Below, one piece after another: positions 11,290-47,754 of a stretch of DNA of 64,000 nt. Position 1 is the stretch's first letter. Every line of letters begins with the position of its first letter. Under the pieces are notes generated by a model that saw only the letters and a program-made list of their open reading frames with translations, ran no database searches and was not told the origin of the DNA. The DNA is from a virus (lineage: Duplodnaviria > Caudoviricetes). Where the stretch lies: IMG/VR virus record IMGVR_UViG_3300044266_000273, positions 1 through 64,000 of that record, one strand, 5' to 3'. The position numbers and the translations under genes were made by a program.

Positions 11290-11319
11290 CTATGGTACAT
11301 AACACCATGGATGCATCAA

Positions 11320-40874: not shown

Positions 40875-41069
40875 ATGAAAAAATACAATCAAAAGCCATC
40901 AATACGCAAGGTTCGTTCTAAGGCGAATCAGGACGTTTATTACACTTCACCTCAATGGGAAACCAAAGAGATTGAAGGCGTAGTATTCATGCCTGTCGTA
41001 AAAATGCCCACAATGGAAAAACAAAATATCCATTGGATGCGTAAAGATAGCATGGAATATATCAAGTAG
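40875..41069 (+). CDS. Small hypothetical protein
   Basis: ORF just downstream of promoter; stop overlaps tRNA start. Confidence 0.55.
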   Translation: MKKYNQKPSIRKVRSKANQDVYYTSPQWETKEIEGVVFMPVVKMPTMEKQNIHWMRKDSMEYIK

Positions 41070-41144
41070 CGCTTGTAGCTCAGTGGTTAGAGCAGAGGAC
41101 TCATAATCCTTTGGTCGTGGGTTCGAATCCCCCCGAGCGCACCA
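41069..41144 (+). tRNA. tRNA-CAT, Ile2 (lysidine)-like
   Basis: Cloverleaf with CCA; GACTCATAATC arm and C4-G69 resemble tRNA-Ile2. Confidence 0.8.
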
Positions 41145-42782: not shown

Positions 42783-43286
42783 ATGAGCCACGTGAATTGG
42801 GGACACAAAACATATGGCGCTGAGAAGATAGAGGTTTTTCAGTGGGGTGAAGGTGCAAAATGTCACATAGGAAAATATTGTTCTGTTGCTGATAAGGTTA
42901 AAATATTTTTAGGTGGTGACCACAAAGTAAATTGGGTCAGTACATTTCCACACAAACAACAAACAGGAACAAAAGGTGATATAATTATTGGCAACGATGT
43001 TTGGTTGAGTCATGGTGTGACGATTATGTCTGGTGTAACCATAGGTGATGGCGCAATCGTAGCAGCCAACTCACATGTAGTGAAAAACATAGAGCCATAT
43101 ACAATTTGTGGTGGCAATCCTGCAAAGTATATAAGACACAGATTTAGTGGTGATGTTATAGATTTGTTATTAAGATTAAAGTGGTGGGATCTGCATGACA
43201 ACCAGGTAAGTGAAATACATGATGTATTATGTGCCGAACCAAATTTAGAAGAATTGAAAAAAATAGTTGAGAAATACCAACGGTAA
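42783..43286 (+). CDS. Hexapeptide-repeat O-acetyltransferase (CatB/Vat-like)
   Basis: IGKYCS, IIIGNDVWL, GVTIGDGAIVAA, GGNPA, LKWWD. Confidence 0.88.
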   Translation: MSHVNWGHKTYGAEKIEVFQWGEGAKCHIGKYCSVADKVKIFLGGDHKVNWVSTFPHKQQTGTKGDIIIGNDVWLSHGVTIMSGVTIGDGAIVAANSHVVKNIEPYTICGGNPAKYIRHRFSGDVIDLLLRLKWWDLHDNQVSEIHDVLCAEPNLEELKKIVEKYQR

Positions 43287-43333
43287 TTAAAAAAGTTTAC
43301 TATATACCTTTATAACTTTTGATGGAGTTTTAA

Positions 43334-43438
43334 TTGTTACACATATCCAAACCCGTTACAACCTGTGAGTATCGCACACCATTTATTGGTAGCGATAATC
43401 AGTCATGGCTACACGGCAAAGGGGTATGTGAAACCTAG
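43334..43438 (+). CDS. Putative attenuator leader peptide (34 aa, 19 different amino acids)
   Basis: GGAG-6nt-TTG; MLHISKPVTTCEYRTPFIGSDNQSWLHGKGVCET*; not in ORF track. Confidence 0.7.
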   Translation: MLHISKPVTTCEYRTPFIGSDNQSWLHGKGVCET

Positions 43439-43496
43439 TAAAACCTAAAAAGTAAAAAAATTTCACAAGCCCCACCCTAAAAAAGTGGGGTTTTTT
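43421..43496 (+). terminator. Antiterminator/terminator switch upstream of tRNA array
   Basis: Terminator GCCCCAC/GTGGGGT + T-run; alternative pairing 43421-43433 with 43461-43473. Confidence 0.75.
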
Positions 43497-43582
43497 GTTG
43501 CTTTTTTGCAACACACGTATTGACAAAGTTCTAGAACTGTGTATAATTCGTGATTCGTTCTTAAAAAATTTAAAGTAGTTTG
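43496..43582 (+). promoter_or_regulatory. tRNA-array promoter module 1 (palindrome, sigma70 promoter, boxA-like leader)
   Basis: TGTTGC-N6-GCAACA; TTGACA-16-TATAAT; 29-nt leader identical to 44251-44279. Confidence 0.75.
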
Positions 43583-43583
43583 T

Positions 43584-43660
43584 AGCCGCTTCGCCAAGTC
43601 CGGTAAGGCACTTGATTTTGATTCAAGCATTCGGTGGTTCGAATCCATCAGCGGCTGCCA
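43584..43660 (+). tRNA. tRNA-Gln(TTG)
   Basis: Cloverleaf, CTTGA-TTTTGAT-TCAAG, CCA. Confidence 0.9.
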
Positions 43661-43754
43661 TATTGAAGCACATTATAGTGACGCATGAGCAGGTCATTAA
43701 CTTCCGCTGGTTACGCCAATCGTAAGTGAGTGAAGATAGTGTGTTTCAATATGG
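43658..43754 (+). ncRNA. Conserved-stem cassette 1
   Basis: CCATATTGAAGCACATT...AGTGTGTTTCAATATGG enclosing 63 nt. Confidence 0.6.
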
Positions 43755-43760
43755 TTTATT

Positions 43761-43851
43761 GGAAACGTGGCAGAGTCCGGTTTATTGCAACAGTCTTGAA
43801 AACTGTCGAGCGCATCATGCTCCGTGAGTTCGAATCTCACCGTTTCCGCCA
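43761..43851 (+). tRNA. tRNA-Ser(TGA)
   Basis: Class II cloverleaf, G73, CCA. Confidence 0.9.
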
Positions 43852-43857
43852 ATTTTC

Positions 43858-43947
43858 CGAGAACGGGCAGGACGGTAATGCAGCGGATTGCTAATCCGTA
43901 GATTCATGAAAATGGATCACAGGGTTCGACTCCCTGGTTCTCGGCCA
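43858..43947 (+). tRNA. tRNA-Ser(GCT)
   Basis: Class II cloverleaf, G73, CCA; lacks U8. Confidence 0.82.
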
Positions 43948-44015
43948 AGTTGTGTTGCAACTGATTTGAGGAACTCCCGTACACCTCAAAAAGAATGACA
44001 AAAAAACGGGGCCAT

Positions 44016-44107
44016 GCCAGCGAGACTTGGTAGTCAGAGAGGTCTTATAAGCCTTTTAGCGCCAGATTAGCGTTCTTGAGAGTGTTCGATTCACTCCGCT
44101 GGTACCA
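44016..44107 (+). tRNA. Non-canonical tRNA, anticodon TAT, long variable arm
   Basis: GCCAGCG/CGCTGGT acceptor, CTTATAA loop, GAGTG-TTCGATT-CACTC, ACCA. Confidence 0.7.
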
Positions 44108-44112
44108 ATTAT

Positions 44113-44188
44113 GTGCGTGTGATCCGAATGGTTAGGAAGCGGATTGCAAATCCGTATTATGCAGGTTCGACTCCTGTCACGCACTCCA
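44113..44188 (+). tRNA. tRNA-Cys(GCA)
   Basis: Cloverleaf, U73, CCA. Confidence 0.9.
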
Positions 44189-44193
44189 ATAAA

Positions 44194-44279
44194 TGTTGTA
44201 TTTGTACAACAGCTGGTTGACAAACCTTCCAGTTCATGTACAATACATCTTTCGTTCTTAAAAAATTTAAAGTAGTTTG
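44194..44279 (+). promoter_or_regulatory. tRNA-array promoter module 2
   Basis: TGTTGT-N6-ACAACA; TTGACA-16-TACAAT; same 29-nt leader as module 1. Confidence 0.75.
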
Positions 44280-44354
44280 CTCGGTTCGTCTATCGGTTTA
44301 GGACGCTAGCCTTTCACGCTGGAAAGACGGGTTCGACTCCCGTACCGAGTACCA
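44279..44354 (+). tRNA. tRNA-Glu(TTC)
   Basis: Cloverleaf, CTTTCAC loop, CCA. Confidence 0.9.
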
Positions 44355-44475
44355 TTTGTTTTGCTGATTGTAAGCCATGGGCTTGATCATGCCTGAGTAA
44401 CTATGTATATAATTGCGGTAATTCTAGACAATCCCGCATGAGCATAGCAAATAGTGCAGTCAGCAAAACAAATGG
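44352..44475 (+). ncRNA. Structured RNA closed by a long terminal stem
   Basis: CCATTTGTTTTGCTGATTG pairs with CAGTCAGCAAAACAAATGG; internal stems. Confidence 0.6.
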
Positions 44476-44481
44476 TAATAG

Positions 44482-44557
44482 GCGGGTATAACTCAGTTGG
44501 TAGAGTAACTGGCTTTTAACCAGTAAGTCCTCGGTTCGAGCCCGAGTGCCCGTACCA
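44482..44557 (+). tRNA. tRNA-Lys(TTT)
   Basis: Cloverleaf, CCA. Confidence 0.92.
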
Positions 44558-44564
44558 AGTTTTT

Positions 44565-44657
44565 GGGTGTCTTGATGCTAAGGCGTGTGCATCACCAGAC
44601 TGTAAATCTGGTCCCTCGTGGTAAACATTCGCGGTTCGACTCCGTGGACACCCACCA
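44565..44657 (+). tRNA. tRNA-Tyr(GTA)
   Basis: CCAGA-CTGTAAA-TCTGG, long variable region, extended D-stem. Confidence 0.82.
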
Positions 44658-44666
44658 AATTATAAT

Positions 44667-44743
44667 GCCCTGGTGACGGAATTGGTATACGTGTTGGTCT
44701 TAGAAGCCAAATTTTGAGAGTTCGAGTCTCTCCTAGGGCACCA
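44667..44743 (+). tRNA. tRNA-Leu(TAG), short variable arm
   Basis: 77 nt, Leu-type D-arm, CTTAGAA loop. Confidence 0.85.
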
Positions 44744-44819
44744 TATTGAAGCACATTCTTTGAGGTCTTGGTCGTTACCGGCGTATGCAAAAACGGCGAC
44801 AGAGTGTGTTTCAATATGG
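44741..44819 (+). ncRNA. Conserved-stem cassette 2
   Basis: Same 17-nt arms enclosing 45 nt. Confidence 0.6.
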
Positions 44820-44891
44820 TGAGAGTAAGGGTGGTATGTAGGTGTTCTCTCAACACTGAGGACTGGGATTCCCTGGCCAGCAACACTGGCG

Positions 44892-44971
44892 CCATATTGA
44901 AGCACATTATCAATGTAGGTTCGATTCCTCGCCATTGATCCGGTTGCTGGTGTTAGTGTGTTTCAATATGG
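44892..44971 (+). ncRNA. Conserved-stem cassette 3
   Basis: Same 17-nt arms enclosing 46 nt with a T-loop-like AGGTTCGATTCCT. Confidence 0.6.
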
Positions 44972-45044
44972 TCTCAAAGTGTTCATGGACGCACGTATGC
45001 CTGTCACGCATAAAGAAGGGGATCGTTACCCCTTGGGACCGCCA
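44970..45044 (+). tRNA. tRNA-Asp(GTC)
   Basis: TATGC-CTGTCAC-GCATA, G73; T-loop ATCGTTA. Confidence 0.85.
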
Positions 45045-45060
45045 TAAATATTTTTTCTAT

Positions 45061-45135
45061 TCCCCAATAGCTCAGTGGTAGAGCAAAGCACTGTTAATGC
45101 TTGGGTCCGAGGTTCGAAACCTTGTTGGGGAGCCA
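45061..45135 (+). tRNA. tRNA-Asn(GTT)
   Basis: Cloverleaf, CCA. Confidence 0.92.
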
Positions 45136-45141
45136 AATAAA

Positions 45142-45218
45142 CGGAGTGTAGCACAGCCTGGTAGTGCGCTTGCTTTGGGAGCAAGAGGTCCAAGGTTCGA
45201 ATCCTTGTACTCCGACCA
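45142..45218 (+). tRNA. tRNA-Pro(TGG)
   Basis: Cloverleaf, C1-G72, CCA. Confidence 0.93.
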
Positions 45219-45267
45219 ATCTCGCCTTGACTGACGGCGTACAGAAGGATAAATTGTCAGTTTATAT

Positions 45268-45342
45268 GGGCTGCTAGTGATAATGGGAGCACGCCGGCTT
45301 TGCACGTCGGAGGTTGGAGTTCGATCCTCCAGCGGTCCACCA
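45268..45342 (+). tRNA. tRNA-Ala(TGC)
   Basis: G3-U70, TTTGCAC loop. Confidence 0.9.
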
Positions 45343-45346
45343 TTAC

Positions 45347-45421
45347 GGTTCAATGACGTAGACGGATGCGTACCGGTTTCATAAGCCGAGGAGATTGGAT
45401 CGTTACCAATTTGAACCACCA
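45347..45421 (+). tRNA. tRNA-Met(CAT), elongator-like
   Basis: TTCATAA loop; T-loop ATCGTTA; CCA. Confidence 0.78.
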
Positions 45422-45426
45422 AATTT

Positions 45427-45501
45427 CGGTCTTTGGTGAAACGAATATCACGTAGGGCTACGGACCCTAAGTTAGGGGTTTGATTCCTCTAGGACCGGCC
45501 A
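45427..45501 (+). tRNA. tRNA-Arg(ACG)
   Basis: TAGGG-CTACGGA-CCCTA, CCA. Confidence 0.85.
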
Positions 45502-45503
45502 AA

Positions 45504-45577
45504 ACCCGCGTAGCTCAATGGTAGAGCAAAGTGCTGATAACGCTGAGACACAAGTTCGATTCTTGTCGTGGGTACCA
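45504..45577 (+). tRNA. tRNA-Ile(GAT)
   Basis: CTGATAA loop, CCA. Confidence 0.88.
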
Positions 45578-45582
45578 GTAAT

Positions 45583-45656
45583 TCCGGGGTAGTATAATGG
45601 CAGTGCGGCGGTCTCCAAAACCGTTAGTGGGGGTTCGATTCCCTCTCCCGGAGCCA
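45583..45656 (+). tRNA. tRNA-Trp(CCA)
   Basis: GCGGT-CTCCAAA-ACCGT, G73. Confidence 0.9.
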
Positions 45657-45679
45657 ATATATAATAACAAGAGGTTAAT

Positions 45680-46162
45680 ATGAAAAAATTAGATATTGCT
45701 GAAGTTAAAAAATTCATTCAGGCACAAAGCCCTGATACTAAGATTTATCTTGGTGCTGATTCCGAACGTTTTAGAATGGACGGAAAATGGTATGCAGACT
45801 ACACTTTGGCAGTTGTTGTTCATATTAACGGCCGCCACGGGTGTAAGATTTTTGGTGAAGTTCAACGTGAGTTGGATTATGACCAAAAGAAAAGTAAGCC
45901 TGCATTACGTTTGATGAATGAAGTATATAAAGTTGCTGACTTGTTCAATCAACTTATTGATGTAATTGAAGATAGACACGTAGAAGTTCATTTAGATATT
46001 AATCCTGATGAACACTTCGGTTCTTCATGCGTTATTCAACAAGCGATTGGTTATATTCGTGGCACATGTAACGTGGTGCCAATGGTTAAACCAAAAGCGT
46101 TTGCTGCGTCATATGCTGCTGACAGATTAAAACATGTCATGGCTATGTCTAAAGCTGCTTAA
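45680..46162 (+). CDS. RNase H-like protein, YkuK/DUF458 family
   Basis: KIYLGADS, AVVVH..G..G, RLMNEV, VEVHLDIN, AASYAAD. Confidence 0.78.
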   Translation: MKKLDIAEVKKFIQAQSPDTKIYLGADSERFRMDGKWYADYTLAVVVHINGRHGCKIFGEVQRELDYDQKKSKPALRLMNEVYKVADLFNQLIDVIEDRHVEVHLDINPDEHFGSSCVIQQAIGYIRGTCNVVPMVKPKAFAASYAADRLKHVMAMSKAA

Positions 46163-46165
46163 TAT

Positions 46166-46240
46166 GGTGTCTATGGTGTAGTGGAAGCATTACTCTCTGT
46201 GAAAGAGTAGGTACGAGGTCGGTACTCGTTAGACACCCCA
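46166..46240 (+). tRNA. tRNA-His(GTG)
   Basis: G-1:C73, CTGTGAA loop; atypical T-loop GTCGGTA. Confidence 0.85.
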
Positions 46241-46256
46241 ACAAAAGGAATAGATT

Positions 46257-46496
46257 ATGATCCCACTTAATAATAATGTAATTGTTAAACGTTCAGAAAA
46301 AAAGTTAACAACTGAATCTGGAATTATATTGCAACGAAATGATGATGCAGATTTTGCGGATGTTATTTCTGTTGGGCCAGATGTCGTTGATGTGACTGTC
46401 GGTGAAAAAGTGTTGTTGGATTGGAACAAAGCAATAAAAATTGACAAAGAAAATTTTAAAATTTCTGTTGACAACATTATTGCAGTTGCAGTATAA
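46257..46496 (+). CDS. groES: GroES/Cpn10-like co-chaperonin
   Basis: PLNNNVIVKR..TTESGIIL..VISVGP..V.VGEKVL. Confidence 0.85.
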   Translation: MIPLNNNVIVKRSEKKLTTESGIILQRNDDADFADVISVGPDVVDVTVGEKVLLDWNKAIKIDKENFKISVDNIIAVAV

Positions 46497-46506
46497 TTAA
46501 CTCATC

Positions 46507-46580
46507 GCCTCCTTAGTTTAATGGTAGAACTCCGTCTTTACACGGCGGTTACGGCAGTTCGATTCTGTCAGGAGGCACCA
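46507..46580 (+). tRNA. tRNA-Val(TAC)
   Basis: Cloverleaf, CCA; TTGACA-18-TATAAT at 46468-46497 upstream. Confidence 0.9.
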
Positions 46581-46583
46581 ACG

Positions 46584-46657
46584 GCTCTCATAGTATAAAG
46601 GTATTACACATCCTTGGTAAGGCTGAGACACAGGATCGTTACCTGTTGAGAGCACCA
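46584..46657 (+). tRNA. tRNA-Thr(GGT)
   Basis: TTGGTAA loop; T-loop ATCGTTA. Confidence 0.82.
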
Positions 46658-46661
46658 ATAT

Positions 46662-46737
46662 GCCGCTATGGTGAAGGTGGTCCTCACGCTGGTCTGAAGT
46701 ACCAGAGAACTCTGATCGTAACAGAGTGGCGGCACCA
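46662..46737 (+). tRNA. tRNA-Phe(GAA)
   Basis: CTGGT-CTGAAGT-ACCAG; T-loop ATCGTAA. Confidence 0.82.
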
Positions 46738-46739
46738 TA

Positions 46740-46814
46740 CTGGCGTTAGTTCAATGGACAGAACAGTAGCCTTCTAAGCTATTAATAGAGGTTCGATTCC
46801 TCTACGCCGGACCA
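46740..46814 (+). tRNA. tRNA-Arg(TCT)
   Basis: CTTCTAA loop, CCA. Confidence 0.9.
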
Positions 46815-46818
46815 ATTA

Positions 46819-46908
46819 GCCCGAATGGTGAAATAGGTAGACACAAGAGACTTAAAATCTCTCGCTTCCGAAAGGGGCGTGCCGGTTCGATTCCGGCTTC
46901 GGGCACCA
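46819..46908 (+). tRNA. tRNA-Leu(TAA)
   Basis: Class II cloverleaf, CCA. Confidence 0.92.
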
Positions 46909-46926
46909 AGTTTACCAAAATTGTAC

Positions 46927-46955
46927 TTGACTTATTAAAAAATACACTATATAAT
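46927..46955 (+). promoter_or_regulatory. Sigma70-type promoter inside tRNA array
   Basis: TTGACT-17-TATAAT just upstream of tRNA-Gly. Confidence 0.7.
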
Positions 46956-46964
46956 AATGACATT

Positions 46965-47037
46965 GCGGGTGTTCTCCTGGGAGAGGACTTAGCCTTCCAA
47001 GCTAAAGAAGCCGGTTCGAATCCGACCACCCGCTCCA
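46965..47037 (+). tRNA. tRNA-Gly(TCC)
   Basis: CTTCCAA loop, U73. Confidence 0.87.
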
Positions 47038-47045
47038 AAATTTAA

Positions 47046-47119
47046 GCCCTTTTAGTATAATGGCATTACGTCGGTTTTGTAATCCGAATACGGGAGTTCG
47101 ATTCTCTCAAGGGGCACCA
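47046..47119 (+). tRNA. tRNA-Thr(TGT)
   Basis: TTTGTAA loop, CCA. Confidence 0.88.
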
Positions 47120-47124
47120 AGATT

Positions 47125-47198
47125 GCGGGATTAGTTTATTGGTAAAACGAAACCTTGCCAAGGTTTAGTGATCAGTTCGATTCTGATATCCCGCTCCA
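47125..47198 (+). tRNA. tRNA-Gly(GCC)
   Basis: TTGCCAA loop, U73. Confidence 0.9.
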
Positions 47199-47199
47199 G

Positions 47200-47395
47200 A
47201 ACGTGCCGTCTAATCAACGGCTAGTGTGACCCACATGACAGGAAGTGGCGTGATAACCACGGGTGGTAGTCTTTAAACCGAAAGGCCGCTGGCAATGCGT
47301 AAACGGCCCTTGTCGAGGAGCGGGTGGAAGGTATAGTGAGGGGCTAAAAGCCTGATGCATATACTACAATTACCGCCGAGGGGCGTCAGAGCATT
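47200..47395 (+). ncRNA. ~195-nt structured RNA, manA-motif-like
   Basis: GC-rich, multi-hairpin, bounded by tRNAs; size and context match the manA motif as recalled, not searched. Confidence 0.5.
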
Positions 47396-47401
47396 TTATT
47401 T

Positions 47402-47476
47402 CGCGGGATGGGAAAGTAGAAATCCGCTTGGCTCATAACCAAGAGATCGGTGGTGCGAATCCACCTCCCGCAACCA
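47402..47476 (+). tRNA. tRNA-fMet(CAT), initiator-like
   Basis: CGCGGG start, C1:A72 mismatch, CTCATAA loop. Confidence 0.85.
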
Positions 47477-47478
47477 AA

Positions 47479-47754
47479 CTACTTTAAATTTTCTTCTCTA
47501 CAGGACCTCTCACGGTATACTTTACCTTCGGGCGTCTGTATTTCTTTCCACTCGGTGCACACAATTTGTTTTTCCACCACGATTGGTTGTTGCGATTTGA
47601 CTATTTCATAGACAACTACACCACTAACGATTGATGGAATAACCCAACCCATACCTGGTTTCCAAACCCAATGTGGATGTGGTTGTTGATGTCTATATTG
47701 TGCCGATGCACTCAGTGAAACAACTGCAAGTAAAAGAACTACGAACTTTTTCAT
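47479..47754 (-). CDS. Small secreted protein
   Basis: Sec signal MKKFVVLLLAVVSLSASA; second hydrophobic segment; Cys pair. Confidence 0.6.
   Translation of the reverse strand: MKKFVVLLLAVVSLSASAQYRHQQPHPHWVWKPGMGWVIPSIVSGVVVYEIVKSQQPIVVEKQIVCTEWKEIQTPEGKVYRERSCREENLK

Follow-up and report, generated by a model that had tools for sequence, protein, structure and literature searches.

A putative leader-peptide attenuator encoding nearly all amino acids upstream of the tRNA array of a T4-like freshwater phage

Which function can be assigned to the 34-codon open reading frame (ORF) that separates an acetyltransferase gene from an array of tRNA genes in the viral record IMGVR_UViG_3300044266_000273? 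The stretch analysed here, hereafter the window, comprises 64,000 nucleotides (nt) and corresponds to positions 1-64,000 of this 95.9-kb viral contig from IMG/VR. The phage is a T4-like myovirus, according to its tail sheath, portal (phrog_213) and DNA polymerase (phrog_262) genes, and its closest cultured relatives are T4-like cyanophages (cyanomyoviruses), with a portal identity of about 54%. The original prediction, made from the letters of the window without database searches, proposed a ribosome-coupled attenuation of the trp/his type in front of the tRNA array. Comparison of relatives supports this proposal. We estimate at roughly 0.7 the probability that the element is a ribosome-coupled leader-peptide transcription attenuator placed before the tRNA array of a T4-like freshwater phage, and that its peptide is selected to contain every amino acid.

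From 5' to 3', the locus consists of the acetyltransferase gene, a GGAG motif, the leader ORF, an A-rich spacer, a terminator, a promoter (P2) and the tRNA array. In the following description, segments 1 to 4 are the pairing strands of the putative attenuator and P1 is the promoter of the leader.

42783-43286: hexapeptide acetyltransferase gene, directly upstream of the leader region
43303-43308 (+ strand): P1 remnant (degenerate leader promoter), with a -10-like TATACC that aligns with the TATACT -10 box of relatives such as L177
43324-43327 (+ strand): Shine-Dalgarno motif GGAG, 6 nt 5' of the TTG start codon
43334-43438 (+ strand): leader ORF of 34 codons plus TAG (43436-43438), with a TTG start, 19 amino-acid types and no Ala
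43340-43348 (+ strand): segment 1, likely anti-antiterminator, codons 3-5; predicted to pair with segment 2 in the minimum-free-energy fold, with weaker support than for the 2:3 helix
43370-43397 (+ strand): central hairpin within the ORF, with an outer stem (43370-75 with 43392-97) and an inner stem (43378-81 with 43387-90), encoding Y-R-T ... S-D-N
43421-43433 (+ strand): segment 2, putative antiterminator 5' arm, made of the final ORF codons and ending 2 nt 5' of the stop codon
43461-43473 (+ strand): segment 3, putative antiterminator 3' arm, its final 5 nt forming the base of the terminator 5' arm
43469-43496 (+ strand): intrinsic terminator (segments 3:4), with a 7-base-pair G+C-rich stem (5' arm 43469-43475, 3' arm 43485-43491), a 9-nt loop and a T6 run up to 43496
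43520-43547 (+ strand): second promoter P2, sigma70-like (TTGACA-16 nt-TATAAT, 12/12), driving the array independently of the attenuator
43584-47476 (+ strand): array of 26 tRNA genes for all 20 amino acids, the presumed regulated target, with internal promoters at 44217, 46468 and 46927

The ribosome-binding site GGAG, the TTG codon at 43334 and the 34-codon ORF all lie where they had been predicted, and so do the terminator with its T-run at 43469-96 and the sigma70 promoter at 43520. The pairing of 43421-43433 with 43461-43473 at 12 of 13 positions was also recovered, with one G.U pair and one A.A mismatch.

Taken by itself, the leader of the window is only mildly unusual. Its first 25 codons do encode 19 amino-acid types, only Ala being absent as had been noticed. 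Nevertheless, the six frames of the window contain 287 ORFs of 30-45 residues, of which five reach 19 types and one reaches 20 (the latter, at 11292, is a chance ORF lying out of frame inside a 260-residue gene), and 0.4% of the 34-residue windows of the phage's own proteins reach 19 types. Furthermore, the leader uses 28 distinct codons versus 26.1 expected from synonymous choice (p=0.21). The region folds strongly (-52 kcal/mol, z = -4.3 versus shuffled sequences). In this predicted fold, segment 2 pairs upstream with codons 3-5 around the central hairpin and the terminator stands, which would be the complete four-segment layout of a classical attenuator. If only the window were considered, the ORF could be taken for a chance one within the 3' untranslated region that follows the upstream gene, closed by the ordinary terminator of that gene, since the diversity of the ORF is only within the top 2% of random small ORFs and P1 is missing. 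This explanation is already refuted by the conservation of the ORF across more than 119 contigs and by all the other comparative evidence, and its probability is close to nil. The significance of the element hence depends on its family of relatives and not on the single copy of the window.

This family was recovered in several ways. A search with the acetyltransferase protein gave ten close loci, each with an ORF of 32-35 codons at the same place, the lengths of which vary by whole codons only. A DNA pattern derived from the central hairpin, used to scan IMG/VR contigs, matched more than 119 contigs, which is a lower bound; all the family counts derived from this pattern are given among the matches listed. 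These encode 58 distinct peptides of 31-44 residues, of which 42 contain all 20 amino-acid types, 13 contain 19, two contain 18 and one contains 17. The original prediction had proposed to test the regions upstream of the tRNA arrays of related phages for short ORFs with an excess of amino-acid diversity; most of these relatives encode the complete set within 31-44 codons. Completeness is reached in as few as 31 residues, for example in L177:258-350:- and L069:718-810:-. With independent draws from the protein composition of the phage, the probability of obtaining all 20 types is 2e-4 at 31 residues and 2e-3 at 39, and none of the 15,499 windows of 31 residues in the phage's own proteins reaches it. 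Fixing M, E, Y, R, T, S and W, in order to allow for the search pattern, only raises this probability to between 6e-4 and 6e-3.

Members with all 20 types occur in all five peptide clusters. Furthermore, a profile search of 1.84 billion representative proteins, which is independent of the DNA pattern, gave only 14 relatives. Among its divergent homologues, P0009, P0010 (an N-Y-R-T variant of 31 residues) and P0013 (E-Y-H-T ... P-W, 39 residues) contain all 20 types, as does P0014 when counted from an internal Met (residue 24) that aligns with the family start; the loci of these divergent homologues share the same architecture. In addition, when an amino acid present once in a peptide is lost from its position in a relative, it reappears elsewhere in 93% of cases versus 51% under a null that redraws the differing positions (peptide pairs with 35-75% identity, which are non-independent). 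These sequence comparisons indicate that amino-acid completeness is actively maintained. A near-identical strain, represented by a Logan contig of run X3 from another freshwater sample, differs from the window by 43361 A>G, which gives T10A and supplies the missing Ala, and by 43426 A>T, a change that restores pairing at the A.A mismatch of the 2:3 helix.

This X3 strain differs from the window at 34 positions within 43015-43688. Its stop codon is TAA in place of TAG, and the changes L26P and H27L in its leader leave all 20 types intact. One X3 contig also joins 43165 to 43479 and skips the leader, a junction that is unreliable because only 21 nt lie on one side of it.

The searches also define the limits of the family. 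About nine unique pattern matches are unrelated and lie inside larger genes or in unrelated sequence. The matches without a small ORF (L064, L080, L095, L101, L118, L132, L163 and L169) were rejected, being located within unrelated larger genes or unrelated sequence; none of them has a tRNA downstream on the strand of the motif, and only L095 is near tRNAs, all on the opposite strand. A looser DNA pattern, designed for the divergent Y-H-T variant, gave about 115 chance loci and nothing new beyond L010-L012. Used as a negative control, these chance loci showed no small ORF with all 20 types and no tRNAs. In cultured phages (50,697 records, blastn and tblastn), only tRNA matches and noise were obtained and the leader was not found. 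The leader peptide matched no family among the Pfam and PHROG profiles. A weak match (E = 0.07-0.13) links residues 4-21 of L174:6954-7055:+ and L177:258-350:- to phrog_35049, a profile of 56 positions and unknown function that may contain mis-called longer versions of such leaders.

Is the short ORF translated? It is kept in every family member, and all its insertions and deletions are multiples of three. In relatives with a 5' leader, purine-rich boxes occur at the place of the Shine-Dalgarno motif before GTG, TTG or ATG. In 25 distinct versions, the start codon lies exactly 6 nt after the end of a near-consensus -10 box, so that the mRNA would be leaderless, and this codon is ATG in all 25. 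The 49 versions with a 5' leader use GTG (26), ATG (15) or TTG (8). Leaderless initiation requires a 5' AUG or GUG. Moreover, no copy of the hairpin was found without an ORF in a tRNA context. This comparative evidence points to a translated leader ORF. It also bears on the proposal that the unit is a non-coding small RNA ending at the terminator, with an incidental open frame. The strong fold mentioned above, the conservation of the hairpin and of the long stem and the self-contained unit from promoter to terminator would suit such an RNA. The frame stays open in every member despite many insertions and deletions, the type of start codon follows the leaderless or leadered layout, a composition bias of this kind is impossible in a non-coding RNA and no Rfam family was matched at threshold; we consider this proposal very improbable.

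The pairing expected of a switch was examined in 39 representatives that are less than 93% identical to each other. In all 39, the last part of the ORF pairs with the nucleotides directly ahead of the terminator (segments 2:3) in a duplex with a mean free energy of -20.6 kcal/mol and a mean z-score of -4.0 versus shuffled sequences. This duplex always occupies at least 7 nt of the terminator 5' arm. The 3' end of its ORF-side arm lies from 11 nt before to 6 nt after the first base of the stop codon, so that a terminating ribosome would cover segment 2. The stability of the duplex is equal to or above that of the terminator (-12 to -18 kcal/mol). Within a gapless core of 10 nt, 9.3 of 10 positions are paired on average and several of them show compensatory changes: position 4 is G-C in 17 representatives and T-A in 19, position 5 is T-A, T-G, G-C or C-G, and position 8 changes from G-C to A-T in L084 and to T-A in L176. 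The terminator, made of a G+C-rich stem and a T-run, is also present in the 39 representatives, and its pairs covary across the family. Hence, both the covariation of the antiterminator and terminator arms and the conservation of the ORF with its alternative pairing, on which the original prediction had made its case depend, were found in the relatives.

RNAalifold recovers the 2:3 helix in both subgroups of the family from MAFFT alignments that were not fitted to structure, with transcripts cut before the terminator 3' arm. In subgroup I, 95.5% of the cells of this helix are paired and its covariation score is 0.277, versus 0.160 +/- 0.024 for shuffled alignments (0 of 500 reach it) and at most 0.089 for slid partners. 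The subgroups are out of register and were therefore folded separately; alignment of the whole element, or of all truncated sequences together, by MAFFT followed by RNAalifold recovers only the terminator and the core of the hairpin. The covariance-model alignment A6 was left out of the counts since it mixes antisense matches and misses many members of subgroup I.

Two other helices complete the fold. The 1:2 helix, a likely anti-antiterminator, appears in the predicted folds of the ORF alone for most of the 39 representatives, including the window, and is absent or weak in a few of them, such as L115; in subgroup II, it is a consensus of nine pairs. The outer stem of the central hairpin is identical in all the members selected by the pattern; in L010 and L297, it shows a double change from G-C to A-T. 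The inner stem is not the same in the two subgroups. This hairpin is a candidate RNA polymerase pause hairpin, by analogy with the trp leader, and such a role would fit a timing model.

The effect of a ribosome was modelled by equilibrium folding of the 39 representatives with the ribosome footprint masked. The terminator is intact in 36 of them when no ribosome is present and in all 39 when the ribosome is on segment 2 or on the stop codon. When segment 1 is covered, the antiterminator replaces the terminator in about two thirds of the representatives, which in the window corresponds to A-site codons ~1-11. The original prediction, in which a stall at almost any codon would free the antiterminator, thus holds in this model for these early codons and not for the later ones, where no flip occurs. 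Since completeness appears to be selected over the whole ORF, it argues that delays anywhere before segment 2 matter.

The link with tRNA genes is constant: a tRNA array, usually beginning with tRNA-Gln, follows the leader on the same strand in the 70 members with enough downstream DNA (70/70). P1 scores at least 10/12 in 62 of 74 distinct versions, and the best score upstream of the window leader is 8/12; the -35 box is lacking there because the stop codon of the upstream gene occupies its place. Ten loci have a gap of only 68-73 nt between stop codon and first tRNA, and this gap contains no promoter. In L296, a tRNA-like gene starts 8 nt after the T-run, again with no promoter between, and L086 is laid out likewise. 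In L091, the terminator is followed by five tRNA genes (Gln, two Ser, Ile and Cys) before any recognisable promoter occurs, and these five tRNAs would hence be made only by read-through of the leader terminator. The tRNA-like gene of L296 (3166-3255) is a type II sequence with a Ser-like anticodon loop, TGA, that ARAGORN did not call; the same holds for L086.

Promoters and terminator might also be those of a free-standing small-protein gene, consisting of P1, the ORF and the terminator, whose peptide would act in trans, for instance on a host target, the helices serving mRNA stability or termination and the position beside tRNAs being inherited. Such a gene would account for the near-consensus P1 of these 62 versions, for the terminator of its own and for the second promoter that serves the tRNAs in 63 of 74 versions. 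It would also account for the near-invariant residues, Y, T and W being invariant and E, R and S nearly so, and for the presence of at least one Cys in nearly all listed peptides, most of which have one or two. However, it gives no reason for the presence of all 20 amino acids in 31 residues, lineage after lineage, with single residues that relocate. Moreover, the C-terminal residues vary freely (G-V-C-G-T, G-S-G-T-R, G-F-C-V-K-M-E-N) while complementarity to segment 3 is kept at the nucleotide level, the terminator of several lineages adjoins tRNA genes without a promoter of their own, and no Pfam or PHROG family was matched. We therefore regard a small-protein gene as unlikely.

If the element is an attenuator, its codons can be compared with the tRNA set that it precedes. 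Under strict wobble rules, the leaders use on average 21.9 of the 25 elongator tRNA species of the window, and the window leader uses 23, those missing being Ala-TGC and Arg-TCT. Windows of 35 codons in genes (n=2,206) use 15.1 +/- 2.5 species, the highest value being 21. At a fixed amino-acid sequence, synonymous choice accounts for a mean gain of 1.8 tRNA species (p = 0.01 for the window versus synonymous resampling) and 2.6 distinct codons, all 39 representatives being above expectation. Hence, of the proposal that codon choice mirrors the isoacceptors of the array, a weak but consistent trend in synonymous choice remains; exact Watson-Crick complements of the phage anticodons show no enrichment among leader codons (0.53 for the window and a family mean of 0.37, for a background of 0.48). 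Leader codons are somewhat rarer than the codons of genes, which may result from the G- and C-rich pairing segments. Unlike classical attenuators, the leader has no codon run for any one amino acid. An enrichment in codons related to the regulated genes could be recognised only in an extended sense, the targets being tRNAs for all amino acids.

The lack of enrichment in exact complements would also fit an attenuator that reads the general arrival or speed of ribosomes, as affected by host shut-off, ribosome-targeting toxins or antibiotics or loss of coupling, the complete set of amino acids only avoiding bias. The same evidence on architecture applies to it. Leader ORFs responding to translation stress in general have precedents in toiL (PMC12121999) and in the bmrCD leader (PMC4191407). 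Nonetheless, avoiding bias needs no completeness. The maintained amino acids and a tRNA coverage above expectation, including both isoacceptors of two-isoacceptor families, point to tRNA supply, and the genes that would be regulated are tRNAs. A sensor of ribosome speed in general is thus an improbable explanation.

For the reading that we prefer, an attenuator responding to tRNA supply, the following mechanism can be proposed. RNA polymerase starting from P1, or coming from the upstream acetyltransferase gene in the window, would transcribe the ORF of 31-44 codons. The RNA of this ORF would form one long stem, in which segment 1 (codons ~3-9) pairs with segment 2 (the last codons) around the central hairpin. 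Segment 2 could alternatively pair with segment 3, whose 3' end is the base of the terminator stem. A fast ribosome would cover segment 2 at the stop codon, the terminator would form and transcription would stop; without a ribosome, 1:2 and 3:4 would form and transcription would stop as well. A ribosome held at a hungry codon would mask segment 1 or keep it from segment 2, so that 2:3 forms, the terminator is lost and transcription reads through into the tRNA genes. A shortage of almost any charged tRNA would thereby raise transcription of the array, since the ORF contains all 20 amino acids and uses about 22 of 25 elongator tRNA species, and translational capacity would thus be under feedback control. 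How strongly and in which direction the array would respond, and what would naturally trigger the response, are inferred here. The trigger could be host anticodon nucleases or starvation, as the original prediction supposed. Going further, the element may act as a homeostat for the whole phage tRNA set, the leader being a serial test strip and any drop of a pool boosting the array until translation speed recovers; such a drop could come from host tRNA degradation at shut-off, from amino-acid starvation or from anticodon-nuclease defences. We hold this extension tentatively and rate it somewhat below even odds.

Several points weigh against a tRNA-responsive attenuator. In the masked folding, the terminator stays the minimum-free-energy structure at every stall position in eight of 39 representatives; L130, with an intermediate result at its first three codon positions, could be counted as a ninth. 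Past codon 11 or so, segment 1 re-pairs with segment 2 behind the stalled ribosome, which restores termination in the equilibrium model. The 1:2 duplex has a mean z-score of only -1.1 and shows little covariation, and for this reason we grade this helix as likely only. The conservation of Y-R/H-T, S/G-D and W in the peptide coincides with the hairpin and could reflect a function of the peptide instead. P1 is degenerate in the window. The element would therefore act there only on transcripts from the acetyltransferase gene, P2 supplying the array independently, as the original prediction had anticipated in restricting the switch to transcripts from upstream. P2 itself, located between the terminator and the first tRNA, scores at least 10/12 in 63 of 74 relatives, is absent in 11 and scores 12/12 in the window; where it is present, read-through would only add to constitutive transcription. 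All members belong to one phage clade with a conserved gene order, and their adjacency to tRNA genes is thus partly inherited and not independent. Finally, among the sequencing runs searched for the locus, no RNA run was found; two runs labelled RNA-Seq look like DNA and contain mainly tRNA parts.

Other observations concern the surroundings of the element. The original prediction had placed 27 tRNA genes downstream. Actually, 26 follow the leader, and the 27th, a lone tRNA-Met at 41069-41144, is located about 2.3 kb 5' of it and is followed by genes for rubrerythrin, rubredoxin, dCMP deaminase and the acetyltransferase. In most relatives as well, the 3 kb 5' of the leader contain one or two tRNAs. 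An 18-nt box just 3' of P2 (43565-43582) is repeated after the internal promoter 44217 (44262-44279) and is 100% complementary to 47475-47492, which overlaps the last two bases of the final tRNA of the array and its 3' continuation. The 5' leader and the 3' trailer of the array transcript could thus form a long-range stem resembling the processing stems of rRNA operons. The spacers between tRNAs also hold three copies of a hairpin element of 80-97 nt (43658-43754, 44739-44821 and 44892-44971) with arms of 16-28 nt; for two of them, the 5' arm begins within the CCA end of the tRNA that lies before it. These elements could be processing signals or small RNAs.

Synechococcus phage S-CRM01 (L299 14046-14661), a cultured freshwater cyanomyovirus, also has an acetyltransferase gene immediately 5' of a tRNA cluster (Met-His-Thr). 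This order echoes that of the window, and the 150-nt gap of S-CRM01 has no comparable leader ORF. The tRNA region of this cyanophage has 37 Rfam tRNA matches, 36 of them over the cut-off. A search of this region for an analogous, non-homologous ORF with all 20 amino acids found none; the best candidate has 19 types and its context is unfit.

The element shares much with the attenuators of the amino-acid operons of Enterobacteria (trpL, hisL, leuL, thrL, ilvL and pheL): a leader ORF that is probably translated, the 2:3 and 3:4 pairings and a likely 1:2 pairing, an intrinsic terminator, a stop codon placed for the covering of segment 2 and termination as the predicted default without translation. 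These classical leaders contain runs of one or a few cognate amino acids and control biosynthetic enzymes, whereas the phage leader has no runs, contains all 20 amino acids and precedes tRNA genes. It also differs from them by an additional conserved hairpin in the middle of the ORF and often by a second promoter after the terminator. With Rfam models on 43200-43600 and E up to 10, only sub-threshold matches were obtained and no family reached its gathering threshold. The best match, Trp_leader (RF00513), scored 19.5 bits versus a gathering score of 41, without sequence homology, and Phe_leader scored 14.6 bits versus a threshold of 55. To our knowledge, all known cases of textbook leader-peptide attenuation respond to one or a few amino acids and have enzymes as their targets.

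As in the phage leader, a stalled ribosome remodels the RNA and the signal is not one amino acid in ermCL, in the bmrCD leader (PMC4191407) and in toiL of topAI-yjhQ (PMC12121999). These differ from it in that they respond to drug-bound ribosomes at specific arrest contexts and control cellular resistance or toxin genes; none has been reported as selected for amino-acid completeness or as controlling tRNA genes. T-box riboswitches follow the same logic, in which a shortage of charged tRNA leads to antitermination and to expression of genes that restore the supply of charged tRNA. However, a T-box binds one uncharged tRNA directly and without translation, whereas the phage leader would have a ribosome test about 22 tRNA species one after another. 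Even at E up to 10, no T-box covariance-model match was found on 43200-43600. The leaderless polycysteine short ORFs of mycobacteria (bioRxiv 10.1101/834739) share with 25 family members a leaderless start at a regulatory short ORF, but they are attenuators responding to a single amino acid (Cys) in cellular operons. Searches of the full-text literature yielded leader peptides that respond to one amino acid, to antibiotics or to translation stress, and none encoding all amino acids or located upstream of tRNA genes.

If the homeostat reading is true, control of tRNA genes by an attenuator would be known from this element for the first time, and its leader peptide would be the first from nature to show selection for amino-acid completeness. 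Coupling a leader selected for all 20 amino acids to a block of tRNA genes would mean that attenuation can also serve as a gauge of translational capacity in general. Since the element is self-contained and only about 170 nt long, it could be moved into a reporter, which makes the sensing of tRNA depletion by a phage testable, and it might be used as a compact biosensor for aminoacyl-tRNA supply. Furthermore, the amino-acid completeness of short ORFs may serve as a search criterion for other general translation sensors. The tRNA arrays of phages are currently discussed in terms of codon usage, host shut-off and escape from tRNA-cleaving defences. The leader described here would, if true, give these arrays their first regulatory logic.

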